From: Candidatus Omnitrophota bacterium
Lineage (GTDB): Bacteria > Omnitrophota > Gorgyraeia > Gygaellales > Profunditerraquicolaceae
Direction: 5' to 3'
Assembly: GCA_035402765.1 (NCBI GenBank)
Contig: DAONDX010000002.1
Coordinates: 65,173 to 129,172 of the forward strand
DNA length: 64,000 nt
Each line of letters opens with the position of its first letter. Position 1 is the stretch's first letter. A model generated the notes under the pieces. That model did not search any database and was not told the origin of the DNA. It saw nothing but the letters and a program-made list of their open reading frames with translations. Below are positions 14,263-39,128 of this stretch, in pieces. The position numbers and the translations under genes were made by a program.

Positions 14263-14345
14263 GCTGGAGTGGTGGAATGGCATACACGTCGGTCTCAAAA
14301 ACCGATGGGGGCAACTCCGTGAGGGTTCAACTCCCTCCTCCAGCA
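14263..14345 (+). tRNA. tRNA-Leu (anticodon CAA), class II long variable arm, CCA not encoded
   Basis: Acceptor GCTGGAG/CTCCAGC, discriminator A. Anticodon stem TCGGT/ACCGA, loop CT-CAA-AA. 15-nt variable arm. T arm GAGGG-TTCAACT-CCCTC. Confidence 0.85.
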
Positions 14346-21086: not shown

Positions 21087-21881
21087 CTATTTACCCTCTA
21101 GCTTCTTTACCAACGCCAGCGCAATTTTAATTAAATTGCCTTCGGCCATATAATAAAGCGGATTCATAAAACCCATTTCACCGGTAACCACATTATCACT
21201 AACGGCCAGTATTGAACAAGCCTTGATATTATAGGTCTGACAAATCGTCAAAAGCGTTGAAGAAACCATGTCCACGGCTCTGGCGCCTTCCTTGCGCTTA
21301 GCTTCCACAATTTCGCGGGTCTCCCGCAGTAAAGCATCCGTAGTCCAGGCTTTGCCCCGGTGCACCCTTAAACCCATGCCGGTGGCAATCTCAAATAAAA
21401 GATCAGAGAGATTTTTATTACTCGCCGTCTTAAAATCTTTATCCACATAATACGGAGTAACTCCGTCGCCGCGGATAATTTCATCCACGATAAATAAATC
21501 CCCGATTTTAATATCCTCATCCAATGATCCGCAGGTACCCACGCGGACAATGTTCTGAATTCCGGCATTACACATTACTTCGGTAGTAATTGATGTATCC
21601 GTAGAGAATCTTCCGCCGTTAATCCCGGTGACCTTAATCCCTTCATAAGTTCCGGTGTACATAGTATATTCCATAAAGGAAAAATTCTTCATGGGATTTT
21701 CCAGTTTTTTCATTAAAACATCCAGGCGGTCGCGCGGCCCCGGTACAATCGCATACTTGCCTACATCCTGCGGCCTAAGCTGGACCATTGCCGTTAAATC
21801 TTTCCCTGTCAAATGAACTGCTTTTTGCATTTCCATATTAACTATTCCTCTCCTTAAATGAGCGGACAACTTACGGAGCAA
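21087..21881 (-). CDS. Purine/5'-methylthioadenosine/5'-deoxyadenosine nucleoside phosphorylase (PNP/UDP family 1)
   Basis: 264 aa. DeoD-like blocks (YTGTYEGIKVTGINGG; VRVGTCGSL; phosphate-binding region). True start may be an internal Met (MEMQK/MQKAV). Confidence 0.75.
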   Translation of the reverse strand: MLRKLSAHLRRGIVNMEMQKAVHLTGKDLTAMVQLRPQDVGKYAIVPGPRDRLDVLMKKLENPMKNFSFMEYTMYTGTYEGIKVTGINGGRFSTDTSITTEVMCNAGIQNIVRVGTCGSLDEDIKIGDLFIVDEIIRGDGVTPYYVDKDFKTASNKNLSDLLFEIATGMGLRVHRGKAWTTDALLRETREIVEAKRKEGARAVDMVSSTLLTICQTYNIKACSILAVSDNVVTGEMGFMNPLYYMAEGNLIKIALALVKKLEGK

Positions 21882-22184: not shown

Positions 22185-23096
22185 TTAAAGAGCAAACAGC
22201 TTTGCTAAATTCCCCCCCAGAATATTCTCCTTCTCCTCCTGGGTCAAATCCAAATCCTTAACCGCCTTAATACCTGCGGCAATATCCTGCTTAGCCGGCC
22301 AATCGCTGCCCCACAGAATACGCCGGGGCCCCATTAAATCTAAACTTAATAAAAAGTTAGCGCGGGTGGTGTCTCCGCTGGTATCCACATAAATATTTTT
22401 AAAATAATCCGACGGCAAACCTTGCAGATCTTTGACAAAATTCATCTTGCGCAGCATCTGATAGGTCGCATCAAAGCGCTGTTTTAGATAACAGATCGCC
22501 CCGCCGAAATAGGCAAAGATAAATCTGGTCCTGGGGAACTGCCTCAACACATCCGACATTAAAAGCTTGCCGGCTGAAATCGTAGTATCAAAAATATATT
22601 CAACTACCGGGGTAAGCAGCGGGTCCTTAACCCGTTCATAACCAATCGGGTTAACAATCTGGGAGTGCACAAAAATCGGCAGGCCTTTTTCTTCCGCCAG
22701 TTTATACACCGGTAAAAACATCTTATCATCTAAATATATCCCGTTATAGCTGGAAGCCAGAGAGACCGCTTTAAAACCTAATTCTTCGGTTACGCGTTTT
22801 ATTTCATCTACCACATCAATAGAATTATCAAAAGGAAGGATCGCAGCTCCGATAAATCTTTCCGGATAAGCCTTTAAAATCTTTCCCACATTATCATTAA
22901 ACAGATGGGCCACCTGGCTGATACTGCCTAATTTTAAATGCGCATCAGAAGTCGGATAGCTTAATACCGCCCGGTCAATACCGGCCTCATCCATCATCTT
23001 AAGCTGGGCCTCAATATCCCCCCAACCCTTATGGAAAAAGTGGGCATTAGAAATTATTTCATCCGGAAGCCAGTGGGAATGTGCGTCAATTAACAT
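22185..23096 (-). CDS. Amidohydrolase-2 family metal-dependent hydrolase/decarboxylase (ACMSD-like)
   Basis: 303 aa. N-terminal MLIDAHSHW metal-binding His pair. Later HS..V and D..W motifs typical of PF04909. Confidence 0.7.
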   Translation of the reverse strand: MLIDAHSHWLPDEIISNAHFFHKGWGDIEAQLKMMDEAGIDRAVLSYPTSDAHLKLGSISQVAHLFNDNVGKILKAYPERFIGAAILPFDNSIDVVDEIKRVTEELGFKAVSLASSYNGIYLDDKMFLPVYKLAEEKGLPIFVHSQIVNPIGYERVKDPLLTPVVEYIFDTTISAGKLLMSDVLRQFPRTRFIFAYFGGAICYLKQRFDATYQMLRKMNFVKDLQGLPSDYFKNIYVDTSGDTTRANFLLSLDLMGPRRILWGSDWPAKQDIAAGIKAVKDLDLTQEEKENILGGNLAKLFAL

Positions 23097-23527
23097 TAAT
23101 GCTCCGTGCTCTTTAGTATACGCTGGGTCATCTCTTGTTCATACATCGCCTTGATCCTAAAAAATTCTTTACGGCCAAGCTCTTTGACGATGGATTTCTC
23201 AATTGCCCGCAGCTTAACATCCAGAAAAATAAACTCGGTATTTTTCCTTAAACCTTGGCACTTTAGATCCGAACAAGCCTTTTCTTTAACGGCAATATAA
23301 GCCTGAAAATCACCTACCATCTTCTCAAGCTGGGCTTTTTCATGCGGCAGATACGCGCCCATCAGCTCATTTTTAATTTCCCTTAAGATATCTTGATCAA
23401 TGTCAACTTGGGTAAACTTGCGTTCAAACTTATCAAACGCCTCTTTGGTGGTTTTGTACAGCCAGATAAGATAACGTTTCTTTAGGTTCTTAATATCCTG
23501 ATTATCCATATTTACCTCCTTGCCCAC
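23096..23527 (-). CDS. Hypothetical cytoplasmic protein
   Basis: 143 aa ORF, charged/helical. No recognisable motif. Start overlaps the stop of the upstream gene. Confidence 0.35.
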   Translation of the reverse strand: MGKEVNMDNQDIKNLKKRYLIWLYKTTKEAFDKFERKFTQVDIDQDILREIKNELMGAYLPHEKAQLEKMVGDFQAYIAVKEKACSDLKCQGLRKNTEFIFLDVKLRAIEKSIVKELGRKEFFRIKAMYEQEMTQRILKSTEH

Positions 23528-23602: not shown

Positions 23603-24214
23603 TTATTTCTTTACCAATTCCACCGTATCAAAATAAAGGGTACCTTTGGTTCCGGGAAGCGGCTCAAATTGAAACATCCTGATCGGAAAATCCATTACTC
23701 CGTTTTGATCGGCATCCTGCGGCTGCCAATCATCACGCACGATGAATTTATCAAAACTAACCACTACTTTTTTCCAGCCGGCAAAATCGTCATCGGCGAT
23801 AAACCGCCAAATCTCACCCCCGGTATCTTTGATATCAAAAGCGATCTTAGCTTTTGAATTTGTCCCGTAGACATAAAAAGATACCGCGCTGTATTCTTCC
23901 CATTTGATATCGGAAGGCTTGACCGCCCAGTTAGCATTCTTGGCATCTAACCCGGCGCCGCGGGCAATATACATATAACCACCGCTGACCGCATCATAAT
24001 CAACCTTCAAAGCCTGTTTACCGCTATTTTTAATATCGCTGGCTCCGATCACCTGGATACTTGAACCATTGCCGGCGCCAAAATCCACGGTGCCGTCAGC
24101 GCCGCCGGAAACCACAATTTCAAAATCATCAAGCAAGACATTGCTCTCGGCTGCCCAACCGGCGCCCGAGATTAATAAAACTAAAGCTGCAGTTAAAAAT
24201 CCTGTTTTTTTCAT
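23603..24214 (-). CDS. Secreted protein of unknown function
   Basis: 203 aa. Clear signal peptide (MKKTGFLTAALVLLISGAGWA). Beta-rich composition. Confidence 0.45.
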   Translation of the reverse strand: MKKTGFLTAALVLLISGAGWAAESNVLLDDFEIVVSGGADGTVDFGAGNGSSIQVIGASDIKNSGKQALKVDYDAVSGGYMYIARGAGLDAKNANWAVKPSDIKWEEYSAVSFYVYGTNSKAKIAFDIKDTGGEIWRFIADDDFAGWKKVVVSFDKFIVRDDWQPQDADQNGVMDFPIRMFQFEPLPGTKGTLYFDTVELVKK

Positions 24215-24264: not shown

Positions 24265-25071
24265 TTATTTTCCCGGATGCTGCTGTTTATAAGGTATCAC
24301 CGGAGCAACCCAGGGCGTTTGCTGGTTAATTACCGCGATCTCTAAAGGGCAGACATTAGCCGGGACGGTTAAAGCAAAACGCACCGCGTCTTCAATGGCC
24401 TGCGTGCTCATCAAACGCGAGGTATCCGTACTGATATTCTGAAGTTTACCGGTTAAGTCCGTATCGGTAACCCCGGGTAATATCGAAGTAACTTTAATCC
24501 CGTGGTCGCGCAATTCCCAAAACAAACCCTTGGAAAATGCCCTTAAGCCTACCTTAAGCGAGCTGTAAACGATAAAGGTCCTGGGCAGCGGGTCACATAA
24601 GGTCGAACCGGAGACCATATTAATGATCGCTCCGCTTTTATTCTTGATCATATCATTAATCACCAGGCGGATCATCCGCACATAGCCCAAATAATTAGTA
24701 TGCGCTAATTTCTCGAAATCCTCGATCGGCTGATCCTGAAAAGGATATTGGCTGGATACCCCGGCATTATTGATCAGGATATCGATCTGGCCAAACTTCT
24801 CTTTGGCGCTTTTGACTAAATTTTCCAGATCTTCTAATTTTGTCACATCGCAAGCTACCGGCAAAACCTGGACTTTAAATTTTTTGGCGATCTCATCGGC
24901 AGTCTCTTTTAAAGGGCCCAGATTACGCGCCCCGATCACTAAATTAACCCCAAGACTGGCGGCGGTACAGGCCAAGGCTTTGCCAATTCCACGGCTGGCA
25001 CCGGTAACAATTGCTGTTTTTCCTTTTAATTCTAAACTCATACCTCTCCTCCTTATGTACGTACATAACAC
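24265..25071 (-). CDS. Short-chain dehydrogenase/reductase (candidate polyketide ketoreductase)
   Basis: 268 aa. TGASRGIG Rossmann motif, NNAG, catalytic YxxxK (YSSLK). First gene-distal member of the PKS operon. Confidence 0.85.
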   Translation of the reverse strand: MLCTYIRRRGMSLELKGKTAIVTGASRGIGKALACTAASLGVNLVIGARNLGPLKETADEIAKKFKVQVLPVACDVTKLEDLENLVKSAKEKFGQIDILINNAGVSSQYPFQDQPIEDFEKLAHTNYLGYVRMIRLVINDMIKNKSGAIINMVSGSTLCDPLPRTFIVYSSLKVGLRAFSKGLFWELRDHGIKVTSILPGVTDTDLTGKLQNISTDTSRLMSTQAIEDAVRFALTVPANVCPLEIAVINQQTPWVAPVIPYKQQHPGK

Positions 25072-25108
25072 CGGCGCAGATCAAATAGGCGCCGGGTGAC
25101 TCTACCAA

Positions 25109-26242
25109 TTAGCCCCGGGTGTATATTTTATTTCCGACTACCCGGCTAAACATTAATAAAATCAGCAGCCCCGAACCAAACACTAAAAATCCTAAACCAA
25201 AACTTTTCTGCATGATCAAACCGCCCAAGCTCACTCCTATGCCGCCGGCAATAAAACGCACGGCGCTGTTTAGGCTTGCGGCTTCATTGAGAAGCTCCGC
25301 CGGCAGATCCGTAAGCATAGTGGATAAACCCACATGATTAAAAGTCCAGCCCATGCCCCAAACAATCATCACGACAGCCAATAACCCCACCGGCAACTTG
25401 ATCAAGAGCAGAAAAACACAGACGATCATCGAAAGAATGCCTAAATTTACCACTTTTAACCGGCCCAGGGAATCTGCCAGATGGCCTCCCCAAACTTCCC
25501 CGAATATCCCGGCTAAGCTGGTCAGAGTGATCAGCATGCTGATTAAAAACTGGTTTAAATTTAATTGCGTCGAGAAATAAACTCCCAGCCATTGCTGCAC
25601 AGCATGATAAATCAAACTTATCAGGAAAATATAGCCGAAAATTTTAATGACTTTTTTATTTTTAAACGCCTCGAAATAACCCAGGCGGAAATTTCCGGCA
25701 TCCGCTTTAAAACTGGGCAAATAAAAATACATAAAAATCCAAAGTATAAATCCACAGAGCGCCGGAATGAGAAAAATCAACCTCCAGGAAATTATCCCGC
25801 TTAAAAACAGGCCCAATAAAGAAGCTATGAATGTCGAGCCAAAAAATAAACCAAGATAACGGCCGCGCTTAGCCGGCTTTAGGTGTTTGGCAATCACGAT
25901 CAAGCCCAGAGGAATAACCGAGGCTCCAAAAAATCCCATCATAAACCGGGCCGCAAAAAGCACAGAGATATTACCCGCTGCGGCTGCCAAAAGATTAGCC
26001 AGGGAAAACAAGAAGATGCAGAATAATTCAACCTTGCGGGCATCAAATAAGCGTACCAACGGACCATACAGCAGCGCCGCCAGCCCGTAAGGAAGCATAT
26101 ACAACCAGATAATTTTGCCGACCACAAATTGAGAAAGAGCAAAATCCGCGGCAATTGAAGGAACCAGCGCAGCAGAGGCTGCCACATTAAACGATAGAAC
26201 CGCTCCTTCTAAACAAAGGATAATAAAGGTAAGTGCGCTCAC
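25109..26242 (-). CDS. MFS transporter (candidate product exporter)
   Basis: 377 aa, ~12 predicted TM helices. MFS loop motif (LFDARKV). 4-bp overlap with the upstream aromatase/cyclase gene. Confidence 0.8.
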   Translation of the reverse strand: MSALTFIILCLEGAVLSFNVAASAALVPSIAADFALSQFVVGKIIWLYMLPYGLAALLYGPLVRLFDARKVELFCIFLFSLANLLAAAAGNISVLFAARFMMGFFGASVIPLGLIVIAKHLKPAKRGRYLGLFFGSTFIASLLGLFLSGIISWRLIFLIPALCGFILWIFMYFYLPSFKADAGNFRLGYFEAFKNKKVIKIFGYIFLISLIYHAVQQWLGVYFSTQLNLNQFLISMLITLTSLAGIFGEVWGGHLADSLGRLKVVNLGILSMIVCVFLLLIKLPVGLLAVVMIVWGMGWTFNHVGLSTMLTDLPAELLNEAASLNSAVRFIAGGIGVSLGGLIMQKSFGLGFLVFGSGLLILLMFSRVVGNKIYTRG

Positions 26243-26679
26243 TTAGCCGCTTCTTTTTCAATAATCGCTTTAAAGATCTTCAGGTTATGCTGCGAGCCTT
26301 CGTTAATAAAACCTTCGATCTGTTGGTCATTAAATTTGGCTTTGGCATCCATATGAAAATGCTGAATCCAAGTTAATTCAATGCCCCCGGTAACCGGCGT
26401 GTAGAGCCAAATAATCTTCATATACTCAAAAGGAAACAGCGGATCTTCACGCTGCGAATAAGTAAAAAACTTATCTTTAAACAAAAGCCTCCAGGATTGC
26501 CAGGTTTTATCATCCTCATCGGTTAGACGAAAAGTAATTTTATTCGCCTCTTTCTTGACCAGCTCGGCTTTTTTATATTCCGTGCCGAATAATTCCGTCC
26601 AGCGCGGGATATCATTGGAAATATCAAAAACTAAATCGTAAGGCGCCTTAATCACTATCGAATTACAGGTATGTCCCAT
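26239..26679 (-). CDS. Type II PKS aromatase/cyclase of the SRPBCC family (TcmN N-terminal / WhiE-ORFVI / ZhuI-like)
   Basis: Track ORF 26239-26886 trimmed to the internal start MGHTCNSIVIKAPYDLVFDISND (ATG 26679-26677), preceded by GGGGGGATTAA Shine-Dalgarno. Pattern NSIVI.AP.DLV.D..ND...W..LF.EY..AE......FRL..DED..W.SW......Y..W.Y....GG..L.W.Q.F.M is the ARO/CYC polyketide_cyc2 signature as I recall it. Confidence 0.7.
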   Translation of the reverse strand: MGHTCNSIVIKAPYDLVFDISNDIPRWTELFGTEYKKAELVKKEANKITFRLTDEDDKTWQSWRLLFKDKFFTYSQREDPLFPFEYMKIIWLYTPVTGGIELTWIQHFHMDAKAKFNDQQIEGFINEGSQHNLKIFKAIIEKEAAK

Positions 26680-26892
26680 TTTAATCCCCCCAGTATTTTG
26701 CTCTTTTAAAATTAGCTGTTTACGCGGGATGACTTGGCTTGATTCTGAGCGGGGCGTGGAGGCAAGGAGTGGGCATGGTTCCGTCACTTTTATGTCAGAG
26801 AGCGACGCCAGCCGACCCGAGCGAAGTTTTGCCACGCTGGGGTAAAACGAGCGCCCCCGCGAAGAACAAGACAAGACAGACCGCAATAATTA
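26680..26892 (-). promoter_or_regulatory. About 210-bp GC-rich structured intercistronic leader inside the PKS operon
   Basis: No conserved coding signal (the track's N-terminal extension MRSVLSCSSRGRS... is low-complexity). Several local hairpins (e.g. AGTTTTGCCacgctgGGGTAAAACg). GC content visibly above the flanking genes. Confidence 0.3.
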
Positions 26893-27693
26893 TTAATCTA
26901 AAAGAGCAACTACCCTTGCCCAAGCCGCTCCGGTATTTTTGATGCGGATAGGCATACAAAGCACCTTAAATCCAAAATCCGGCAAGCTTTCTAAATTTGC
27001 CAACCGCTCGATATGGATAAATTCTTTTTTTCTTCCGTAGAAATGCGCCGGATAAAATGTTTTAGGGTCTTTGGTCTTTAAGAATTCACTGAGCATAAAT
27101 CTGTAGGGCCGGTCAATCCCCATCGTATCTACGCCAAAGATCTTGACCCCCTGGCCTAATAAATATTCGATGGCGCAAGGGCTGACTCCGGGATAATCGG
27201 CAAAATATTTAGGGCCGCCGTATAACTTATCGGCTCCGGTCTGCAGTAATACGATATCTAAAGGTTTAAGCTGGTAATTGATCTTGGTTAAAGCTTCGCA
27301 AAGGTCCTGTTCCTTGATTACTTCATTTGGTTTTTTATGCCGCAGGTCTAATTTTACTCCGGGCTGATAACAATATTCCAGGGGTATCTCATCGGCGGTT
27401 TTAGAGGCGCGATTTTCAGATTGAGAACCGTAATGGAAGGAATAATCCAGGTGCGTACCGATGTGCACCGGAGCATGGACAATCTCCAAAGAGAGAAATT
27501 CTTCATCGGGCAGCTCTTCTTTTTTCACGATGCGGCCGCCCAATGCGTATTTAATCTTGCCCAAAAGAGTTTTGCCCATGATTACCCGGTTAAACTTTTC
27601 TACCCCGGCTTTATGGGTTACTCTTTCGATAGCCACTTTGTGTACCTCAAAAGCGGTCTCATCAATGGGTAAGCTTAAATCTACTATCTTCAC
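26893..27693 (-). CDS. Cyclase-family protein (PF04199, kynurenine-formamidase fold)
   Basis: 266 aa. Diagnostic HxGTHxDxxxH motif (VHIGTHLDYSFH). Confidence 0.7.
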   Translation of the reverse strand: MKIVDLSLPIDETAFEVHKVAIERVTHKAGVEKFNRVIMGKTLLGKIKYALGGRIVKKEELPDEEFLSLEIVHAPVHIGTHLDYSFHYGSQSENRASKTADEIPLEYCYQPGVKLDLRHKKPNEVIKEQDLCEALTKINYQLKPLDIVLLQTGADKLYGGPKYFADYPGVSPCAIEYLLGQGVKIFGVDTMGIDRPYRFMLSEFLKTKDPKTFYPAHFYGRKKEFIHIERLANLESLPDFGFKVLCMPIRIKNTGAAWARVVALLD

Positions 27694-27761
27694 CCCGCAC
27701 CTTCTCCTTTTTTTATGCTACCCCCTACCTTCTAATATTTAAATTATAGAAGGTGCGGGGT

Positions 27762-27998
27762 TCATTTTGCTAATTTGCTCTCAATATTAGCGGTGATATC
27801 ATTAATTGTGGAATTTTTGGTAATCTCTTTAGGGCTCAGCTTGACCCCGAAAGATTTCTCTAAAGCAATTACCGATTCCACCATCTCCGTAGAATCTACG
27901 CCGATACTGTCGATCAGAGTAGAACCATCTTTTAATTCCTCGATCTTTACTTTTAAGAGGTTGCTTAACACTTCTTTTACTTTTGTTTTTGTATCCAT
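27762..27998 (-). CDS. Acyl carrier protein
   Basis: 78 aa, acidic. Phosphopantetheine-attachment DS motif in GVDSTEMVESVIALE. Confidence 0.8.
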   Translation of the reverse strand: MDTKTKVKEVLSNLLKVKIEELKDGSTLIDSIGVDSTEMVESVIALEKSFGVKLSPKEITKNSTINDITANIESKLAK

Positions 27999-28012
27999 CT
28001 ATCCTCCAACAT

Positions 28013-28090
28013 TATTATTTACGGGTGGCTTGGGTGTTTTCGTAGCGCGTCAGCGCAAGAAAATACCCAAGACAGGACCCGTAAATTTTA
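28013..28090. repeat. Structured intergenic repeat, copy 3
   Basis: TTATTTACGGGTGGCTTGGGTGTTTTC-gtagcgcgtcagcgcaag-GAAAATACCCAAGACAGGACCCGTAAATT. Outer arm TTTACGGG/CCCGTAAA carries G>A and C>T changes that preserve pairing relative to copies 1 and 2. Confidence 0.8.
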
Positions 28091-29548
28091 TATCTGTACT
28101 TCCCCTTTAGTCGCCGCCGCTTCCCACTTATTCAATCCGTCAATAACATCTTGAATACAAAGCTTGGCCAGCGGATCAAAATCGCTTTCCATGATCCGGT
28201 TGATCCGGCCGGGCTTTGAGAAAAATTCACGCATACACCAGGAACCTAAACGGCCCAGGTCTTCGGTGGTCAAATGATCCGTAGGGATTACCGGATGCAG
28301 AAAATCCCAAGTGCTAAAATCAACTTTTTTCGGATCAATCCACCCCTTCTTTAAAGCAATCCTCCACATCGGTGAATTGGGAGCCGGAGTGACATAACCT
28401 ACCCACAGGATATCCGGGTCCACCATGTCGGTGAACTCAAAACGCTGTTTGACGATCTCTTCGGTATCGTAATCAAACCCCATCATAATATCGGCAACAA
28501 TAGCAATATCATTTTTACGCAAGATCTCGATAGTCTTCTTAATCTGCTCGATGGTTGTGCCTTTAGCGATTCTTTTGAGCTCAGATTGTGTCGTTACTTC
28601 AATTCCAAAAACTCCCATAAACAGGCCTGCCTCTTTCATCAGCGGCAGAATTGATTCACAGTTAACCCAATCCACAGCCCTGCCTAAAGCCACCCATTTC
28701 GTTTCGATCTTTTTAGCCAACTTTAATTCACAGAACTTTTTAACCCTGGCAGCATCAACAATGAAATTATCATCCTGGATTACCACTACCTTGACTTTGT
28801 ATTTATTCTGCAAAAGTTCCAGCTCCTCAATTACCCGCTCCGGGCTTTTAGCGCGCCATTTTAAAAAATCTGACGGAGAACGCGGGTCAAATTGATCCCA
28901 TTCATAACAAAAAGTACAGGCCGAAGGACAACCCCGGGAGGTAACCATATCGACAAACGGCTTCCAATAAGTATGCCCGGAATATTTATCCATGGGGAAC
29001 AAGTCATAGGCCGGTAAAGGAAGCTTATCCAAATCTGTCATCAAGGGCTTATGCGGCCCCATCACGATCTGCCCATTAATGCGCGAGGTGACTCCGCCGA
29101 CATCTTTGAGCGGTTTATTTTTATCGATCGCTTCAATTAAATCCCCAAAAGATTCCTCTTCCCCCATCACGATAAAATCAACTTCCGGAATTTCTTCTAA
29201 GGTCGGAATGGGCATGGCGGAATACCAAAGCCCGCCCAAAATGATCTTTATTTTAGGCAGCGCTTTTTTAATTCCGATCGCCGCATCTTTAAAATGACGC
29301 AAAACTCCGTATCCGCCGTAGCCGTGCAGCTGCTCACCCATCACCACAATATCAGGGTTTATATTTTTTACCTGTTGGATCAGCTGCTCCATGGGTATCT
29401 GTTCGGCTTTAGCGTCGATTACCGCTACATCTTTATAACCTTTCTCCCGGATATAAGCAGCCCAATGCGCATATAACTGATTCGGAGACCGGTGAATTCC
29501 ATGCGTGGCCCAGGCGCCGACTTTAGGCATCACAAATAGTATTTTCAT
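28088..29548 (-). CDS. Class B (cobalamin-binding) radical SAM enzyme
   Basis: 486 aa. N-terminal B12-binding Rossmann-like domain (MKILFVMPKVGAWATHG...). Radical SAM CxxxCxxC (RGCPSACTFCYE). Confidence 0.85.
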   Translation of the reverse strand: MKILFVMPKVGAWATHGIHRSPNQLYAHWAAYIREKGYKDVAVIDAKAEQIPMEQLIQQVKNINPDIVVMGEQLHGYGGYGVLRHFKDAAIGIKKALPKIKIILGGLWYSAMPIPTLEEIPEVDFIVMGEEESFGDLIEAIDKNKPLKDVGGVTSRINGQIVMGPHKPLMTDLDKLPLPAYDLFPMDKYSGHTYWKPFVDMVTSRGCPSACTFCYEWDQFDPRSPSDFLKWRAKSPERVIEELELLQNKYKVKVVVIQDDNFIVDAARVKKFCELKLAKKIETKWVALGRAVDWVNCESILPLMKEAGLFMGVFGIEVTTQSELKRIAKGTTIEQIKKTIEILRKNDIAIVADIMMGFDYDTEEIVKQRFEFTDMVDPDILWVGYVTPAPNSPMWRIALKKGWIDPKKVDFSTWDFLHPVIPTDHLTTEDLGRLGSWCMREFFSKPGRINRIMESDFDPLAKLCIQDVIDGLNKWEAAATKGEVQI

Positions 29549-29583
29549 TTAAAACCCTCCATTAGTTTAAAATATAATTAGCT

Positions 29584-30816
29584 TTAAGCTGCTTTTTCAA
29601 CTACGAGCACGGAATTAATTCCGCCGCGGCCGCGTGAAATAATTAAAGATTTGTTTACCTTATATTCTTTGGCCTCGCCAGCCACATAATTTAAGCTGTT
29701 TTGAGCCGGCTTTTCTAAATTTAATGTCGGAGCAACTAAACTATGTTCCATGGTTAAAAGCGCAATGATCATATCTAAGGCGCCGGAAGCGCCCAGTAAA
29801 TTCCCAAACATCGACTTTGGACAGCTGGCCGGGATTTTCTTCAAGTTTTTGCCAAAGACTAACTCCAGGGCTTTTACCTCGGAATTATCCCAAAGTTCAA
29901 CTGCCAAGCCGTCTAAACTAATGTAACCGATCTCCTCAGGCAACGCTTTAGCATCATCCAGGGCCATTTTAATTGCCCGGGCTAATTCTTTTCCGTCGCT
30001 GGCGCAATTAATCCGATCTACTCCGTCACAGGCAGTACCATAGCCGGAAATTAACCCTAAAATGTTGGCGTTACGGCTCCGGGCGCGCTGAATACTCTCC
30101 ATCACTACGATCCCGGCGCCTTCACCGATTACAAAACCGTTGCGCTCCCGGTCAAAGGGCCGATAAGCTCCGGCCGGATCATGATTATTTTTAGAAAGCG
30201 CCCCGTAAGTATTACAACACAATAAAGCATACGGAGAAACCGGCGCTTCCATCCCTCCGCCTAAGATCATATTAAGTTTATTCTTCGCTAAAACTTTTCG
30301 GGCATAACCCAGCGCCATAAGCGAACTGGCCCGGTCACTGACCACGGTCTTGCTGAAACCTTTAATCCCGTAATAAATTGAAACCTGGCCTTGGGGAGCC
30401 GCCGGGAACCAGGCGCTGGCCATATAAGGCGAAACACCTTCCCGGCCTTCCAGGTATAAATCCCTTAATTCCGTCTCAGCGTAAAGCCAGCCGCCGATAG
30501 CATTACCTAAAAAAATCCCCACCAGATTCGGATCTTCGTTCTTGATATCGATCCCGGCATCCTGCAGCGCTAACTCCGCGGCCACCAGCGCCATATGCGA
30601 AAATGCGTCAATTTTCTTAAGCAGTCTTTCGGAGATGTGGCTATACTTTTCTAAATCATCTATTTGGCCGGCAATATGAGAAGGATAAAGGCTGGCATCA
30701 AAACGCCTGATCTCTTTAATAAAAGAACGGCCGCTTTTAATGTTGGCCCAAAACTGCCGCTTACCGATTCCCGACGGGCTGACTACGCCGATACCTGTAA
30801 TTGCAATCTTTTCCAT
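29584..30816 (-). CDS. Ketosynthase-beta / chain-length-factor-like protein (KS fold, catalytic triad absent)
   Basis: Start reassigned to MEKIAITGIGVVSPSG: ATG 30816-30814 overlaps KS-alpha stop as TAATG. Thiolase/KS fold throughout. Active-site Cys position reads VVSDRASSL (no Cys, no Gln). Both His positions replaced (YISLDGLAV; MFGNLLGASG). Confidence 0.75.
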   Translation of the reverse strand: MEKIAITGIGVVSPSGIGKRQFWANIKSGRSFIKEIRRFDASLYPSHIAGQIDDLEKYSHISERLLKKIDAFSHMALVAAELALQDAGIDIKNEDPNLVGIFLGNAIGGWLYAETELRDLYLEGREGVSPYMASAWFPAAPQGQVSIYYGIKGFSKTVVSDRASSLMALGYARKVLAKNKLNMILGGGMEAPVSPYALLCCNTYGALSKNNHDPAGAYRPFDRERNGFVIGEGAGIVVMESIQRARSRNANILGLISGYGTACDGVDRINCASDGKELARAIKMALDDAKALPEEIGYISLDGLAVELWDNSEVKALELVFGKNLKKIPASCPKSMFGNLLGASGALDMIIALLTMEHSLVAPTLNLEKPAQNSLNYVAGEAKEYKVNKSLIISRGRGGINSVLVVEKAA

Positions 30817-32096
30817 TATCCACCAAACCTTTTTAAAATAAGGGAAGAGTGTATCCCTGAAAAACCGCTGCTGGTTTTTAAAATAATATCGACCTTTTTT
30901 TGAATGGCCTGATTGGGAATATAATACAGATCGCACTGGGGGTCTTTTTCCTCCTGGTTGATCGTCGGAGGAAGAATATTTTTTTCAAAAATCAGACTAG
31001 CCATCGTCAGCTCAATGGCATTGGCCGCCGCCAGAGGATGGCCGATCATGGATTTAAAAGAACTGATCGGCAGCTTATAGGCATATTGGCCAAAAATTGT
31101 TTTATAAGCGCTGGTTTCAAAAATATCATTCATTTTCGTGCTTGAGCCGTGCGCATTAATATAATCAATTTCCGATGGTTTAACCTGGGCATCTTTTAAA
31201 GCCAAACTAATGCAAATTTCCATGGCCCGGCCGTCAGAAGGCAAATCCGTCATATGAAAAGCATTGCAGCTGGTGCCAAAACCTAAAACCTCGCAGTAAA
31301 TCGGAGCATTGCGTTTTAAGGCGTGATTTAATTCTTCCAGCACCAGAAGCCCGGCCCCTTCCCCTAAAACAAAACCATCCCTTTTATTATCAAAGGGCCG
31401 GGAGGCTTTTTGCGGTTCGTCATTATGCACGGATAAAACATTGACCACATCAAAAGCCCCGAAGGTAATCGGAGTAAGCGGGGCTTCCGCAGCACCGCAA
31501 ATCATTACATCCATCTCCGCATCCTGAATGCTCTCTAAACCAAAACCTAAAGAATCGGTACCGGCGGTACATCCGGTCGAAATAGTATTACAGTTTCCTT
31601 TTAATCCATAACGGGCGCTTAACTCAATGGAAGGAGTATTAAACATCGCCGCGTCATAAAGATCCGGGCGCACCAAAGCCGGGTTAATCGGCCGCTTGCC
31701 GTCATCGGTAACCAAAGCAAATTCTTCCTCCATATATTTTGTCCCGCAGATAGCATTAGCCAAACAAACACCCACCCGCGTTACATCTTCTTTCGAAAAA
31801 TCCAGCTGACTGTCTTCTATCGCCATTTTTCCGGCGGCTACGCCAAACTGCACGTAACGGTCCATGCGCATAGCCTCTTCATGAGTTAGACCCAATTTAA
31901 AAGGATCAAAATCCCTGACCTCGGCGGCAATCTTAGTATTAAAAACCGAAACATCAAAACCATCCACTAAACGGATCCCGGATTTACCGCTGGAAAAACC
32001 TTCCCAGGCATTCTTTTTCCCGATACCGTTGGGGGAAATTACTCCCACACCGGTAATGACTACTCTACGTTTAACCACTTTTGTTATTCCTTTCAT
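30816..32096 (-). CDS. Ketosynthase-alpha (FabF/KAS II-like, intact Cys-His-His)
   Basis: 426 aa. Active-site Cys (TISTGCTAGTDSLG). His pair (YINAHGSST; KSMIGHPLAAA). N-terminal RVVITGVGVISPNG. Confidence 0.85.
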   Translation of the reverse strand: MKGITKVVKRRVVITGVGVISPNGIGKKNAWEGFSSGKSGIRLVDGFDVSVFNTKIAAEVRDFDPFKLGLTHEEAMRMDRYVQFGVAAGKMAIEDSQLDFSKEDVTRVGVCLANAICGTKYMEEEFALVTDDGKRPINPALVRPDLYDAAMFNTPSIELSARYGLKGNCNTISTGCTAGTDSLGFGLESIQDAEMDVMICGAAEAPLTPITFGAFDVVNVLSVHNDEPQKASRPFDNKRDGFVLGEGAGLLVLEELNHALKRNAPIYCEVLGFGTSCNAFHMTDLPSDGRAMEICISLALKDAQVKPSEIDYINAHGSSTKMNDIFETSAYKTIFGQYAYKLPISSFKSMIGHPLAAANAIELTMASLIFEKNILPPTINQEEKDPQCDLYYIPNQAIQKKVDIILKTSSGFSGIHSSLILKRFGG

Positions 32097-32151
32097 TATT
32101 ACCTAAAACGGAATTCTTTTTTGCCAAGACGCAAGATTTTGCGTCTCTACG

Positions 32152-32745
32152 TTATGTTTGGTTCTTTCGCGTAATCTTGAAAACAATATTTCCCCCGTCC
32201 GGACAGGTAACTGTATCAATCGTATCCGGATCAGGCATAAAGAAAAATTTAGCGCCGAAATTTAAAGCAAATAAAGCCGGAAAAGCGGTATGAAATGCCG
32301 CTCCGCAAAACCCCGGGATACATTTCAACCCTTGAGTTTCCCATTTGTCCCCTACTTTATACCCAAAAGAACATTTGCCTTTTGATTGCACTACCTCCAG
32401 GATCATTTTCTTGGGGCGGGGGCCTTGATACTCCGGATCGCGCGGGATAACTTCCAGTTTGCCGTCTTTATCCAAAATTTCAACTTTAAACTCCAGTTTG
32501 CCGCCGTCAGGACAAGTAGTCAATAACGAACGCTGATTATCGCGAAACCCGAATTTGGCGCCGAAACTTAAAGCATAAATGGTGGGAAATAAAGCATGCG
32601 CCAGGCCTAAACAAAAGTGTTTTGGCGCATGTGTAAAATCCTCCAGAATAATCACATCCCCGGCTTTATACCCGTGGTAACAGACCCCCAGAACCTGGGT
32701 CACGGTAAGTTTAAGCTTCGGGAAAGGTGTTTTTACTTCATCCAT
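32152..32745 (-). CDS. Tandem-duplicated Cys-containing domain protein of unknown function
   Basis: 197 aa of two ~95-aa repeats sharing C..GYK.GD, C.G.A..FP...AL.FGAKF.F and TCPDGG.(L/I).FK(V/I) blocks. No catalytic motif I can name. Confidence 0.5.
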   Translation of the reverse strand: MDEVKTPFPKLKLTVTQVLGVCYHGYKAGDVIILEDFTHAPKHFCLGLAHALFPTIYALSFGAKFGFRDNQRSLLTTCPDGGKLEFKVEILDKDGKLEVIPRDPEYQGPRPKKMILEVVQSKGKCSFGYKVGDKWETQGLKCIPGFCGAAFHTAFPALFALNFGAKFFFMPDPDTIDTVTCPDGGNIVFKITRKNQT

Positions 32746-32746
32746 G

Positions 32747-33751
32747 TTAAACCAGCTCCTTAGTTCTGTGGATAAGATCTTCTTTGCTAAAAAATTTATG
32801 GCTAACCTCTACTTGATGCACCATCTCTACTAAAGTTTTATTCAGGGGCGCGGTAAGATTATTTTCTTCGGCCAAACGCACAAATTCTCCGTTAATATAA
32901 TCAATCTCTGAAAGTTTACCGCGCAGGATACTCTGCAATATCGAGCCATATAACGGGTCCTTGCTTAAATTTCTCATCATCCCCGAGAAAATCTCAGCGG
33001 CATGAGCGCTGGGCAGGCTGGTAAATTTAGTGAGGTTTTCGATCGGAAATCCGGGGAGAGAAACTAAATCTATCCCGATTTTATCAAATATCTCAAAAGC
33101 CTCTTTCCAAATAGCGATACTGATCCGGCTAACGGTTAAATCTCCGAAAACATCCTGTATGCTTCTGCCCAGAATTGCCGGCAGACAATTGTTAGCATTA
33201 ACAAAGATCTTTAAATATTTCATCCCCCGCATATTTTGGCTGATGATCGCCGGGAAAGCCTTATCCAAAACCAAGCTTAAATCGAGCAGCCCTTGAGTAG
33301 GGTTAGGGTTAAAAATGCTTCCCACAATCCAGCTGCCCTCGAAATTATGCACCACTATGCCGGGTTCCAAATTAGTCGCCCCGAACATGATAATACTTGA
33401 GATAATTTGCTCAACCGGTAAATATTTGGCGGCGATCTTATCTGCCTGCACACCGTTTTGCGTAGTGAGCAATAAAGAATTCTGGATTAAATGGCGGCTG
33501 GCCGATAAAGCTGAATCAATATCCTGTGTTTTAGTCGTTAAAATTACTAAATCCGGAGCGTAGTGTAATTTATCGGAGATCTCCACATGCACCGTTTGAT
33601 TCCCCCGGACTCCGGAGATGACCAGCCCCTGCCGGCTGATCACTTCAACCCCCGGACCGCGGCCGACTAAAGTTACCTCTTCGCCTTGCTTTTTAAGGTA
33701 ACCAGCAACTAAACAACCTATAGCCCCGGGGCCGATAACTGCAATACGCAT
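32747..33751 (-). CDS. ApbA/PanE-family 2-dehydropantoate-2-reductase-like NAD(P)H oxidoreductase
   Basis: 334 aa. N-terminal Rossmann MRIAVIGPGAIGCLVAGYL. ApbA_C-type C-terminal domain. Confidence 0.75.
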   Translation of the reverse strand: MRIAVIGPGAIGCLVAGYLKKQGEEVTLVGRGPGVEVISRQGLVISGVRGNQTVHVEISDKLHYAPDLVILTTKTQDIDSALSASRHLIQNSLLLTTQNGVQADKIAAKYLPVEQIISSIIMFGATNLEPGIVVHNFEGSWIVGSIFNPNPTQGLLDLSLVLDKAFPAIISQNMRGMKYLKIFVNANNCLPAILGRSIQDVFGDLTVSRISIAIWKEAFEIFDKIGIDLVSLPGFPIENLTKFTSLPSAHAAEIFSGMMRNLSKDPLYGSILQSILRGKLSEIDYINGEFVRLAEENNLTAPLNKTLVEMVHQVEVSHKFFSKEDLIHRTKELV

Positions 33752-34020
33752 TATGGTTTAACGTTTTTTGGAAAACCGTACTTTTTATAATCAAACCCGT
33801 TTTGTCCCAACAGGCGCACCATCATACTGTAAAAAGGCGAGGGCACATCGGAAAAAAAAGCCGCTACCACATCCTGGTCGCTGACTCCGGTAGAGGAGCG
33901 TTTAGCAGCAAGCTCTTCGGCTCGGCGGCGGACTACTGATTCCGTAATTCTCCGGTGGAATACCGGGATCTTGGAAATTAATACTTTAAATTTATTTTCT
34001 GTTTCCGTTTCCCAAAACAT
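33751..34020 (-). CDS. Small hypothetical protein (first ORF of the PKS operon)
   Basis: 89 aa. 1-bp overlap with the reductase gene. Faint resemblance to stand-alone PCP_red-like small domains (KIP.F.RR...E..A...G); not reliable. Confidence 0.3.
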   Translation of the reverse strand: MFWETETENKFKVLISKIPVFHRRITESVVRRRAEELAAKRSSTGVSDQDVVAAFFSDVPSPFYSMMVRLLGQNGFDYKKYGFPKNVKP

Positions 34021-34055
34021 AGTGGTTGGCTAAAATTAGCTGCGTTGGCCTTCTT

Positions 34056-34081
34056 TTATATAGTAAAATTTTACTATATAA
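34056..34081. promoter_or_regulatory. Perfect 26-bp palindrome, candidate PadR operator in the PKS operon promoter
   Basis: TTATATAGTAAAATTTTACTATATAA, perfect dyad. 36 bp upstream of the first operon ORF (start 34020) and 78 bp downstream of the PadR stop. AT-rich promoter-like context. Confidence 0.45.
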
Positions 34082-34158
34082 TTTTAGTTAAGCTGGCTGC
34101 CTTTGTCAAGATAATTAATCTAATTTTAGAAATTTCAAAACCGGATTGTAGAATAAAG

Positions 34159-34674
34159 TTATATTTTTTTAAGGAGCGCGCTCAAGAAAGCAGATTCTGC
34201 TTTCAGCAGGCAAAGATTATGCTCCATTATCCGCCGTAAGGGCAGGGAATTTTCCAGTTCTTTAGAATCGCACATTTTCTTTAATCCGGAGGAAATTTTG
34301 TCCAGGATTTCTGACCTTTTCTTGAGCCGGCGGCAAGCTAAAGCCGGTTGAGCAAAACCCAGGAAAAATAAACTTAAATCCAGATTGAACTGCGGGCGTT
34401 TAAAATCCAAAAGATTTTTATTGAGCAGCATCTCAAAACGCGCTTTACCCCGGGGGGTAAGACAATAAACCAGCCTCGCCGGCCGCTTGCTTTTTTTTAC
34501 TATCTGCTTGGTAAGGAAACCTTTTTTTTCTAAAATTCTTAGAGGATAATATATGGATTTTAATTGCACGCCGGCAAATAAAGAAAGGATTTCGCGTACT
34601 TTGACTTTAATTTCATAACCATGCTTAGGCCCCTGGCGCAGGAGGCCTAAAAGAATCAGTTCCTGATCAATCAT
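34159..34674 (-). CDS. PadR-family transcriptional regulator
   Basis: 171 aa. N-terminal winged HTH LILLGLLRQGPKHGYEIKVKVREI...IYYPLRILEKKGFL. 4-bp overlap with accA stop. Confidence 0.7.
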   Translation of the reverse strand: MIDQELILLGLLRQGPKHGYEIKVKVREILSLFAGVQLKSIYYPLRILEKKGFLTKQIVKKSKRPARLVYCLTPRGKARFEMLLNKNLLDFKRPQFNLDLSLFFLGFAQPALACRRLKKRSEILDKISSGLKKMCDSKELENSLPLRRIMEHNLCLLKAESAFLSALLKKI

Positions 34675-37574: not shown

Positions 37575-39128
37575 TTGGCACGTCTATTGGGCCGGAAGGA
37601 AAAAATGACCTCTAAAACATACAGCTTTGGCATTCTTGGTCTGGAAGCTTATCCGGTGGAGATAGAAATTGATGTTGCCAACGGGCTTCCCGCGGTAAAC
37701 CTGGTTGGCTTGGCGGATGCCGCGATCAAAGAGAGCAAAGAGAGAGTGCGTTCAGCGATTAAAAATTCAGGATTTCAGTGGCCGGCCCAAAGAATAACCA
37801 TTAACCTGGCCCCTTCTGATATCAAGAAAGAAGGCGCCTGTTTTGATCTAGCCATTGCCCTGGGTATTCTAGGGGCTACCGGACAAATCAATAAAGAATC
37901 TCTTAAAGATTACTCTTTTCTGGGCGAATTATCCTTAGATGGGCAACTGCGCCCGGTACATGGCGTCCTAACGATAAGTTTAACCCTGGCTAAATTACCT
38001 GTAAAAACCCTGGTCCTACCCGAAGAAAACGCCCAAGAAGCGGCAATCGTCCCGGAGGTCTCTGCCTGGGCCTTAAAAAGTTTAAAAGAGGTAGTGCAAT
38101 TCTTAACTGACCCCGCCAGCCGGCAGCCGCTCAAATTAGATATTCATCAAACCCTCAAGAACAGCGCAAATTATACTTTAGATTTTTCAGAAGTAAAAGG
38201 GCAATATTTTGCCAAAAGAGCGCTGGAAGTAGCGGTATCCGGAGGCCATAACATTATTTTAATCGGCCCGCCCGGTAGCGGCAAAACCATGCTGGCCAAA
38301 AGAATTCCAACTATTATGCCAAGCCTTTCTTTAGAAGAAGCTCTGGAAATAACTAAAATTCACTCCGTAGCCGGCACACTGTTAAACCGGGATGGCCTTA
38401 TCAAAACCCGGCCTTTCCGTTCCCCGCATCATAGCATTTCAGATGTCTCCTTGATTGGCGGAGGAAACATGCCTAAGCCCGGGGAGATCAGCTTATCTCA
38501 TTACGGAGTTTTATTCCTGGATGAATTGCCGGAATTTAACCGTAAAGCTCTGGAAGCATTAAGGCAGCCCTTAGAGGACCGTTTAATATGTGTCAGCCGC
38601 ATAAAAAGAACATTGGTTTTTCCCGCTTGTTTCATTTTAGCGGCAGCGCTTAACCCTTGTCCCTGCGGCAACTATTTTAGCCCGCAAAAAACCTGCCACT
38701 GCAGCCAAACAAAAATAAGAAATTATTTAGGGAGGATCTCCGGGCCGCTGTTGGATAGAATCGATTTGCATATCGAGGTTCCGCAGGTAAAATACCAGGA
38801 GTTAACCGATACTTGCCAGGCAGAATCCTCTGCAGCCATCAGGCAGCGCGTAGAGCGCGCCCGGGAAATTCAGCTCCTGAGATTCAAATCTCAAGGAATA
38901 TTATGCAACGCGCAAATGTCTCATAAGCTAATCCGGGAATATTGTGTTTTGGACAAAGAAGGCAGGGAGTTAATCCGGATGGCGATTGCAGAACTGGCTT
39001 TATCGGCAAGAGCTTATGATAAGATCCTTAAAGTTAGCCGGACAATCAGCGATTTAGCGGGAAGCGCGGACATAAAAACCGAGCATCTTTCGGAGGCAAT
39101 TCAATACCGCAGTTTAGACCGGCTGTAA
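37575..39128 (+). CDS. YifB/ComM Mg-chelatase-like AAA+ ATPase
   Basis: 517 aa. N-terminal Lon-protease-like domain (GIPAVNLVGLADAAIKESKERV). Walker A GPPGSGKT. ChlI-type C-terminus. Confidence 0.9.
   Translation: MARLLGRKEKMTSKTYSFGILGLEAYPVEIEIDVANGLPAVNLVGLADAAIKESKERVRSAIKNSGFQWPAQRITINLAPSDIKKEGACFDLAIALGILGATGQINKESLKDYSFLGELSLDGQLRPVHGVLTISLTLAKLPVKTLVLPEENAQEAAIVPEVSAWALKSLKEVVQFLTDPASRQPLKLDIHQTLKNSANYTLDFSEVKGQYFAKRALEVAVSGGHNIILIGPPGSGKTMLAKRIPTIMPSLSLEEALEITKIHSVAGTLLNRDGLIKTRPFRSPHHSISDVSLIGGGNMPKPGEISLSHYGVLFLDELPEFNRKALEALRQPLEDRLICVSRIKRTLVFPACFILAAALNPCPCGNYFSPQKTCHCSQTKIRNYLGRISGPLLDRIDLHIEVPQVKYQELTDTCQAESSAAIRQRVERAREIQLLRFKSQGILCNAQMSHKLIREYCVLDKEGRELIRMAIAELALSARAYDKILKVSRTISDLAGSADIKTEHLSEAIQYRSLDRL

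Follow-up and report, generated by a model that had tools for sequence, protein, structure and literature searches.

A probable 'ancestral', non-actinobacterial type II (aromatic) polyketide synthase cluster in an uncultivated Candidatus Omnitrophota bacterium

Introduction

Does an uncultivated bacterium of a candidate phylum carry a whole pathway for aromatic polyketides, and by which enzymes would the product be tailored? The question is raised by a run of genes in a 64,000-nt stretch of DNA (the window; contig DAONDX010000002.1, positions 65,173 to 129,172, assembly GCA_035402765.1) from an uncultivated Candidatus Omnitrophota bacterium of activated sludge, the assembly of which comprises 1.46 Mb and is 92% complete. 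An earlier note, made from the sequence of the window, had read these genes as a type II (aromatic) polyketide synthase (PKS) operon consisting of the ketosynthase (KS) subunit KS-alpha, the chain length factor (CLF, or KS-beta), an acyl carrier protein (ACP), two cyclases and tailoring enzymes. The analysis described here indicates that this is very probably a genuine type II PKS cluster, one of the 'ancestral' clusters known from outside the actinobacteria.

Many drugs derive from aromatic (type II) polyketides. To our knowledge, almost all of the characterised pathways for them belong to aerobic actinomycetes and employ oxygenases for tailoring. KS-CLF pairs from Candidatus Omnitrophica were included in a 2023 catalogue, in which their clusters were not analysed (PMC10132072), and no paper on the present cluster, on its conservation or on its tailoring set came up in a literature search. 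The core is recognisable as an 'ancestral' type II PKS; what is unusual is the tailoring set, the phylum and a conservation at the level of core genes in genomes of 1-2 Mb. The cluster places a complete aromatic PKS pathway in a candidate phylum without a cultured producer of such compounds, with a tailoring set that points to anaerobic radical chemistry instead of oxygenases. It supplies non-actinomycete KS/CLF pairs for engineering and a test case for the oxygen-free modification of aromatic polyketides.

Results

Identity of KS-alpha and CLF

Family assignments were done by using Pfam and NCBIfam, and the starts of the genes for the short-chain dehydrogenase/reductase (SDR), the SRPBCC protein and CLF were corrected by ortholog alignments (Table 1). 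KS-alpha contains the motifs STGCTAG, HGSST and GHPLAA, which make up a Cys-His-His triad and were kept in the window protein and in all eight aligned orthologs. The triad positions of CLF were occupied by Arg/Asp/Asn in all nine Omnitrophota CLFs aligned (the window protein and eight orthologs), with the active-site Cys replaced by Arg within (S/A)DRAS (VVSDRASS in the window). The pairing of a catalytic KS-alpha with a triad-less CLF, as claimed in the earlier note, was thus confirmed. Arg at the Cys column is common to the CLFs of Omnitrophota, Azospirillum and Bacillus, and Gln or Glu stands there in Streptomyces CLFs; to judge from these residues, the Arg may be the mark of a CLF type that is found outside the actinobacteria and is primed in another way.

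Three maximum-likelihood trees were constructed, one from 91 rows (LG+G4) and two from 65 rows (C20-PMSF and LG+G4, respectively). The labelled references were three Streptomyces plasmid type II PKS clusters, the Azospirillum brasilense and Bacillus bombysepticus clusters, Escherichia coli FabF and FabB, and the aryl-polyene KS pair of strain CFT073, and these were combined with the best matches from a 1.8-billion-protein representative search. KS-alpha fell in all three trees into a clade with the non-actinobacterial KS-alpha proteins of Azospirillum, Bacillus, Laceyella and Clostridium, at 96-99% in the Shimodaira-Hasegawa-like approximate likelihood ratio test (SH-aLRT). Some members of this clade (Laceyella, Thermoactinomyces) are named 'minimal PKS ketosynthase (KS/KS alpha)' in their source records, and Clostridium botulinum contributes one member. 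The clade joined the Streptomyces KS-alpha proteins within a larger KS-alpha clade (96-99% SH-aLRT). CLF was placed, again in the three trees, in a clade of 100% SH-aLRT with the CLFs of Streptomyces, Azospirillum and Bacillus, that is, with all labelled CLFs. E. coli FabF and FabB, the FabF of the genome itself and the CFT073 aryl-polyene KS remained outside both clades.

The approximately unbiased (AU) test, for which the groups were defined once a first tree was available, rejected a tree with KS-alpha held in the FabF group (delta log-likelihood 109, p 0.0018) as well as an origin of the Omnitrophota KS-alpha and CLF by duplication within the lineage (delta log-likelihood 116, p 0.0028). 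The assignment of the pair to type II PKS, apart from FabF, FabB and aryl-polyene enzymes, was therefore borne out by phylogeny. In the PDB, KS-alpha was matched best by the actinorhodin KS (1tqy_A, 370 bits), followed by the KS chain of 6smo (367 bits), and its closest homologs (83-92% identity) were all from Candidatus Omnitrophota/Omnitrophica metagenome-assembled genomes (MAGs). Natural KS-alpha-CLF fusions of 824-869 aa (P0121, P0123 and P0128; loci L047 and L051) were observed among the closest relatives outside Omnitrophota, one cluster member being annotated as originating from a Candidatus Helarchaeota (Asgard) archaeon MAG.

KS-alpha is not the sole elongating KS of this organism. 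A complete fab operon (plsX-fabH-fabD-fabG-acpP-fabF) is situated on contig C18, and a single AcpS is encoded in the genome. Since the canonical fab operon sits on another contig, the cluster is not the housekeeping fatty acid synthase (FAS), and FabD and AcpS are available to it in trans. The score of KS-alpha against the FabF model TIGR03150 was 456.7 bits, below the equivalog cut-off of 493.75.

ACP and cyclases

The serine motif GVDS of the ACP was kept in 16 of 18 orthologs. Together with the KS triad, the dead CLF and the tree clades, it supports the minimal PKS (KS-alpha/CLF/ACP) that had been proposed.

A profile of 15 orthologs of the SRPBCC protein was searched against the whole PDB, and TcmN (2rez) was found at E 2.6e-33 and 118 bits. 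The other significant matches were 3tl1, 3tvr and 2kf2 only, all polyketide-cyclase entries, which we take to be WhiE; the one further row, BexL, was non-significant (E 0.26). The columns aligned to W28, F32, Y35, W65, S67, R69, M91, W95, W108, Q110 and N136 of TcmN were invariant among the orthologs, these residues being reportedly those of the TcmN pocket (Ames et al. 2008). The protein therefore answers to a TcmN-type aromatase/cyclase (ARO/CYC), as had been predicted, with TcmN/WhiE as its only significant PDB families and the pocket conserved; TcmN, however, is fused to an O-methyltransferase, and the Omnitrophota protein stands alone with 146 aa. By analogy, it would act on unreduced chains and catalyse first-ring cyclisation.

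The PF04199 protein carries HIGTHLDYSFH, an HxGTHxDxxxH motif, and shared 46% identity with its counterpart in the Bacillus bombysepticus plasmid cluster and 33% with the cyclase of the metagenomic cluster L049. Family, motif and type II PKS context agree in pointing to an OxyN-type polyketide cyclase. The 'ancestral' architecture of non-actinomycete type II PKS has been described as KS-CLF-ACP-TcmN-OxyN (PMC7693217). The view in the earlier note that this second cyclase has no counterpart in textbook clusters was consequently wrong, since a PF04199 enzyme is the OxyN-type partner in exactly that architecture.

Conservation of the cluster

An ortholog of KS-alpha (at least 62% identity) was found in 70 of the 300 sampled genomes of the phylum. 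The orthologs were 62-92% identical, and a clean gap separated them from the FabF paralogs (48% or less). By rank, the ortholog was present in all 11 genomes of the genus, in 33 of the 41 of the family, in scattered families of the class and in one genome outside the class. The cluster was syntenic around KS-alpha in each of the 20 other Omnitrophota genomes examined, so that the arrangement is not due to chance, and the conserved order was DUF2621-ApbA-(TIGR04076x2)-KS-alpha-CLF-ACP-cyclase-ARO/CYC-(MFS)-SDR, in which MFS denotes a major facilitator superfamily transporter and DUF2621 the small open reading frame (ORF) at the head of the cluster. The small ORF was found in all 20 loci, always directly upstream of ApbA, which was itself in all 20. 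SDR, Amidohydro_2, MFS and TIGR04076 genes were present in 17, 16, 14 and 12 loci, respectively. The radical S-adenosylmethionine (SAM) gene was present in 19, at one of three positions; several other genes are missing from the twentieth locus too. By comparison, the CBM11-like gene occurred in three of the 20 relatives and orf143 was limited to four close relatives.

Identities of KS-alpha to its orthologs were higher than those of the housekeeping FabF in all seven genomes compared (KS-alpha/FabF 90/84, 81/71, 80/75, 79/73, 80/71, 78/69 and 85/72%). This argues for strong purifying selection and vertical descent, and constraint of this degree suggests an important role of the product in these bacteria. 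DNA nearly identical to the locus was found in activated sludge metagenomes, and further DNA matches came from wastewater, sediment and groundwater metagenomes.

Tailoring, export and accessory proteins

The radical SAM enzyme has an N-terminal B12-binding domain (PF02310, 38.9 bits, cut-off 32.1) and a radical SAM domain (PF04055, 72.5 bits, cut-off 29.5), and its CPSACTFC (CxxxCxxC) was kept in 19 of 19 orthologs. The best NCBIfam scores were those of BchE (TIGR02026, 216 bits, cut-off 481) and HpnJ (157 bits, cut-off 578), well ahead of methylase families (about 95 bits) and of TIGR04072, the ladderane family (73 bits, cut-off 360). As these scores lie far under the family cut-offs, the enzyme is not an ortholog of BchE or HpnJ but only BchE-like, and its closest solved relative was AprD4 (50 bits). 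BchE and HpnJ are cobalamin radical SAM enzymes of oxygen-independent oxidation or ring chemistry, not methylation, BchE being the anaerobic Mg-protoporphyrin IX monomethyl ester cyclase; the context here is a PKS, not tetrapyrrole or hopanoid synthesis.

Fifteen B12-binding-domain matches were counted in the genome, ten of them on contig C6 (about 32-82 kb) and mostly in ORFs of about 470-540 aa, one of which adjoins a UbiA prenyltransferase gene (C6:57811-58533). This load of B12-binding proteins is unusually high for so small a genome, and most of them are probably radical SAM enzymes.

For the small ORF, the nearest Atlas clusters were DUF2621. It resembles the C-termini of a U32 peptidase (E 1e-10) and of a HemN-like radical SAM enzyme (E 2e-8), both from the same Clostridium botulinum type II PKS cluster. 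A search for longer homologs returned no fused form of it; tblastn revealed two fusions, both in the Clostridium botulinum locus, and no others were seen. The PCP_red domain, which it matches weakly, also occurs in the chlorophyll enzyme DPOR (subunit BchB). The tandem TIGR04076 protein, a duplicated Cys protein in the earlier description, has the invariant residues C22, H24, H39, C45, H50 and C78, and C125, C147, H152 and C181. Its AF2 model had a pLDDT of 85, and no match was returned by Foldseek against the PDB. A likeness to the N-terminal-region fold of 3on5 and 2we7, which we take to be XdhC-like, was tried and rejected, the best Z by VIA-align (about 7) being within the noise range of the tool. 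The literature search for TIGR04076 gave nothing useful.

The ApbA protein of the cluster is a paralog, since PanB and a better-scoring ApbA/PanE are encoded elsewhere (PanE on contig C3). The SDR had been called a ketoreductase (KR): its membership of the SDR family stood, and an ActIII-type C-9 KR was not shown, as its PDB neighbours were generic SDRs with no actinorhodin KR among the 20 matches listed. It was 31% identical to a Streptomyces cluster KR and 30% to the SDR of the Azospirillum cluster; it is best regarded as a generic SDR, and C-9 reduction is not expected with a TcmN-type cyclase. The best PDB match of the Amidohydro_2 protein was 5-carboxyvanillate decarboxylase (LigW, 105 bits), followed by ACMSD and gamma-resorcylate decarboxylase, a likeness that fits a loss of the terminal carboxylate from an aromatic polyketide. 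A 39% identical copy was found in the unrelated cluster L051.

Parts of this set recurred elsewhere. KS/CLF, TcmN-type cyclase, B12 radical SAM, PCP_red/DUF2621, Amidohydro_2 and SDR genes were found to be combined in two further clusters, one from Clostridium botulinum, where the B12 radical SAM gene lies directly upstream of KS, and one from an unrelated metagenomic sequence of 59% G+C. The latter contains KS/CLF, a TcmN-type cyclase (47% identical), an Amidohydro_2 protein (39%) and an SDR (37%), along with a PCP_red mini-protein and a B12 radical SAM enzyme. Because two further clusters combine these parts, an 'anaerobic toolkit' for type II PKS tailoring recurs across lineages.

Immediately downstream of the cluster, also on the minus strand, are genes for PNP_UDP_1 (21087-21881), an IF-2B/MtnA-like isomerase (20088-21002) and a class II aldolase (19092-20087). 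The trio looks like a DHAP (dihydroxyacetone phosphate)-shunt-type salvage of 5'-deoxyadenosine or methylthioadenosine, which are by-products of radical SAM enzymes. The three genes lay within 10 kb of KS in 15, 15 and 11 of the 20 relatives, respectively; as the trio lies upstream of the radical SAM gene in some loci and downstream of the decarboxylase gene in others, its linkage outlives rearrangement.

Gene layout and regulation

The region of 22-36 kb in the window is a run of minus-strand ORFs without internal stops, in which all eleven genes named in the earlier note, and PadR, were present (Table 1). G+C was uniform across it (0.43-0.47). The intergenic gaps ranged from -4 to 89 nt, with the exceptions of 213 nt between the genes for the PF04199 cyclase and the SRPBCC protein and of 138 nt between padR and the small ORF. 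The start of CLF, directly downstream, overlaps the stop of KS-alpha by 1 nt, and the MFS gene overlaps the ARO/CYC stop by 4 nt. The SRPBCC orthologs start at MGHT, on which the corrected start of the window protein is based.

Table 1. Features of the polyketide synthase region (positions are those of the window)
Feature	Position	Strand	Basis and remarks
PadR-family regulator	34159-34674	minus	PF03551
Promoter-like site and palindrome, candidate operator	34056-34109	minus	Promoter scan of 18 kb
Small DUF2621/PCP_red-like ORF, 89 aa, no Cys	33751-34020	minus	Sub-threshold PF08369 and PF11084; first operon gene
ApbA/PanE-family NAD(P)H reductase	32747-33751	minus	PF02558 and PF08546
Tandem TIGR04076 protein	32152-32745	minus	TIGR04076 matched twice
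KS-alpha, catalytic ketosynthase subunit	30816-32096	minus	PF00109 and PF02801
CLF (KS-beta), catalytically dead	29584-30816	minus	PF00109 and PF02801; true start MEKIAITG
Class B cobalamin radical SAM enzyme, BchE/HpnJ-like	28088-29548	minus	PF02310 and PF04055
ACP	27762-27998	minus	PF00550, 40 bits
PF04199 cyclase, OxyN/DpsY/MtmY-type, metal-dependent	26893-27693	minus	PF04199, 99 bits, cut-off 23
SRPBCC monodomain TcmN/WhiE-type ARO/CYC, 146 aa	26239-26679	minus	True start M70 of listed ORF
MFS transporter, probable exporter	25109-26242	minus	PF07690, 144 bits
Classical SDR oxidoreductase	24265-25041	minus	PF00106, 173 bits; true start M11 of listed ORF
CBM11-like protein, hydrophobic signal-peptide-like N-terminus	23603-24214	minus	Variable insert, not core
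orf143	23096-23527	minus	Variable insert, not core
Amidohydro_2 non-oxidative decarboxylase, LigW/ACMSD-like	22185-23096	minus	PF04909, 109 bits

Of the promoter-like sites in the 18 kb scanned, TTGACA-17-TAAAAT was the best, with 11 of 12 positions matched; it lies in the 138 nt that separate padR from the small ORF. It is followed by a perfect 26-bp palindrome, TTATATAGTAAAATTTTACTATATAA, spanning 34081-34056, the core of which (TAGT-8N-ACTA) resembles the PadR consensus ATGT-8N-ACAT and makes it a candidate PadR operator. padR overlaps the upstream accA by 4 nt; accA-padR is read as an upstream unit in which padR would be translationally coupled to accA. Judged from this layout, PadR is likely the regulator of the cluster; padR was near the cluster in just three of 20 relatives. 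The extent given to the operon in the earlier note, from SDR to PadR, was thus right as to its co-directional, intact and tightly packed genes, all on one strand, but PadR lies upstream of the promoter-like site and the Amidohydro_2 gene falls beyond the downstream end.

The spacer between the two cyclase genes (26680-26892) has 52% G+C and is unique in the genome. It is not conserved, the spacers of relatives ranging from 15 to about 420 nt; a strong fold was predicted for it (-63.7 kcal/mol, a figure without a shuffle control), and no Rfam match was obtained. The Rfam scan detected neither a riboswitch nor any other kind of RNA element in the cluster; its only hits were two tRNAs at about 14.1-14.3 kb (14097-14169 and 14263-14345). 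A Mg-chelatase ChlI/ComM-like AAA protein (37575-39128, plus strand) and a radical SAM/SPASM protein (39184-39984) are also encoded in the window; like the tRNA genes, they are neighbours with no evident tie to the cluster.

Discussion

Strength of the assignment

Several points weigh against the assignment to an 'ancestral' type II PKS. The actinorhodin KS was only slightly ahead of FabF as a match of KS-alpha (370 versus 354 bits), and for CLF, FabF (288 bits) scored above the actinorhodin CLF (252 bits); because raw PDB scores barely separate the pair from FabF, the assignment rests on the trees, which were quick searches with SH-aLRT as their only support. The Gln that serves decarboxylative priming in actinomycete CLFs is absent, Arg being found in all Omnitrophota CLFs. 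The roles given to the radical SAM, DUF2621, TIGR04076, ApbA and SDR proteins are putative ones, drawn from family and gene linkage, and none of the RNA runs checked for the locus sequence carries it. Set against the concordant clades of both subunits, the AU tests, the cyclases and the synteny, these points leave the assignment highly probable.

Alternative explanations

A real aromatic PKS might serve a physiological product, such as a quinone or other redox carrier, a pigment or a cofactor on which these small-genome anaerobes would rely, rather than a secreted antibiotic, and we regard this as rather unlikely. The conservation of KS-alpha above FabF, the vertical-looking inheritance in genus and family and the retention of about 12 kb in a 1.46-Mb genome all speak for it. 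So does the distribution of menaquinone genes of the futalosine route, as MqnA/MqnD were detected in 108 of 301 sampled Omnitrophota genomes and in none of the 70 PKS-positive ones, and no MenD above cut-off was detected in this genome. On the other side, comparison of the 20 loci showed no prenyltransferase gene in the conserved part of the cluster, and the MFS exporter is conserved. The separation of Mqn and cluster largely follows family and class boundaries, so that it represents few independent events. Moreover, 123 of the 301 genomes have neither the cluster nor MqnA, and NuoH-like genes do not follow the cluster: nine of the 11 genomes of the same genus, all of them cluster-positive, lack one at E 1e-50 or better. 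Phyletic distribution thus does not decide for or against a quinone role, and a respiratory quinone role is unsupported.

A specialised lipid, of the ladderane type or otherwise derived from FAS, made by a FabF-derived KS/CLF-like pair with radical SAM enzymes, is very improbable. KS/CLF-like FabF heterodimers with radical SAM partners are present in anammox bacteria (bioRxiv 10.64898/2026.05.19.726425), 'ladderane' biosynthetic gene clusters have been reported in Omnitrophota MAGs (PMC9902471), KS-alpha reaches 457 bits against TIGR03150, and accA lies directly upstream of the cluster region. The trees and the AU tests, however, part KS-alpha and CLF from FabF, and lipid synthesis has no use for an ARO/CYC with an intact TcmN-type pocket, for an OxyN-type cyclase or for an aromatic-acid decarboxylase. 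Neither a dehydratase nor an enoyl reductase was found in the cluster by the Pfam assignments. The cluster radical SAM enzyme is far under the TIGR04072 cut-off (73 versus 360 bits), whereas a true TIGR04072 protein (625 bits) is encoded on contig C16 beside three other KS genes. This second KS cluster (about 10-26 kb of contig C16) comprises three KS-like genes, the TIGR04072 protein and additional B12 radical SAM genes, and it is probably to such a cluster that the antiSMASH label 'ladderane' refers in Omnitrophota (PMC9902471).

The least probable alternative, an aryl polyene or other highly reducing type II polyene pigment, is prompted by aryl-polyene clusters being the commonest KS/CLF-like clusters in Gram-negative bacteria and likewise encoding ACP, reductases and an exporter, but the CFT073 aryl-polyene KS, the one aryl-polyene reference on which the separation rests, grouped with a KS of contig C3 (99-100% SH-aLRT) and far from the window KS-alpha, and the dehydratases, thioesterase, acyltransferases and LolA-like genes typical of such clusters were not found in this one by the Pfam assignments. 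The KS gene on contig C3 (about 1.5-5 kb) adjoins a FabG-like gene, and, because this KS groups with that of CFT073, the genome may also carry an aryl-polyene-like system.

Proposed pathway

For the type II PKS, the following course can be put forward. Transcription would begin ahead of the small ORF, at the promoter-like site, with the palindrome as a candidate operator for PadR. The ACP would be phosphopantetheinylated by the single AcpS of the genome and loaded with malonate by FabD from FAS, and the KS-alpha/CLF heterodimer, both subunits of which are identified, would build an unreduced poly-beta-ketone on it. By homology, the monodomain TcmN/WhiE-type ARO/CYC would fold the chain and aromatise the first ring, and the PF04199 OxyN-type cyclase would close later rings. 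The LigW-like Amidohydro_2 enzyme may then strip the terminal carboxylate, and NAD(P)H-dependent reductions may be carried out by SDR and the ApbA paralog. The BchE/HpnJ-like radical SAM enzyme could perform an oxygen-independent C-H functionalisation, either oxidation/cyclisation or C-methylation, possibly assisted by the DUF2621/PCP_red protein and the Cys/His-rich tandem TIGR04076 protein; radical SAM chemistry would in this way take the place of the oxygenases of aerobes. The product would be exported by the MFS pump.

It is plausible, as suggested earlier, that the product represents new chemistry. A bolder proposal, unlikely though worth stating, is that the cluster is a near-core aromatic PKS of anaerobic Omnitrophota with ultra-small genomes, with wholly oxygen-independent tailoring by the BchE-like cobalamin radical SAM enzyme, the DUF2621/PCP_red protein and the tandem TIGR04076 protein as a metalloprotein. 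Its product would be redox-active and needed for the physiology or for a host-dependent or predatory lifestyle of these bacteria, rather than a dispensable antibiotic. If true, an oxygen-independent near-core pathway would be an example of aromatic polyketide tailoring before oxygenases.

Comparison with known systems

Compared with actinomycete type II PKS (act, tcm and the Streptomyces plasmid clusters L028, L032 and L033), the motifs STGC(T)xG, HGSxT and GH of KS-alpha, the Asp at the first His position of CLF and the translational coupling of KS-alpha and CLF are shared. Identities are about 45% for KS-alpha and about 36% for CLF, Arg is found in CLF instead of Gln/Glu, and didomain ARO/CYC, TcmI, ABM and FAD oxygenase are all absent here.

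The best multi-gene match among annotated records was an uncharacterised plasmid cluster of Bacillus bombysepticus (NZ_CP085408), with identities of 47% for KS-alpha, 42% for CLF (with Arg at the Cys site too), 46% for the PF04199 cyclase, 34% for the SRPBCC protein and 31% for ACP. SAM methyltransferases, an FAD oxidoreductase, a cupin and an AcpS of its own are found only in that cluster, which in turn is without the radical SAM, DUF2621, TIGR04076, ApbA and Amidohydro_2 genes.

The nearest characterised systems in architecture are the clr, den, ant and pcy clusters for clostrubin, dendrubin, the Photorhabdus anthraquinone and pyxidicycline, respectively, with which a minimal PKS, TcmN-type and PF04199 cyclases and few or no oxygenases are shared (PMC7693217). 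Their hosts are anaerobic or Gram-negative, as here, and the likeness is one of described architecture, the sequences of ClrA/B, DenA/B and AntD/E not being in the trees. Relative to these four, the Omnitrophota cluster adds a BchE-like radical SAM enzyme, a DUF2621/PCP_red protein, a tandem TIGR04076 protein, an ApbA paralog and a LigW-like decarboxylase, and it differs further in its monodomain instead of didomain TcmN-type protein, in its Omnitrophota host and in being conserved like a core gene set.

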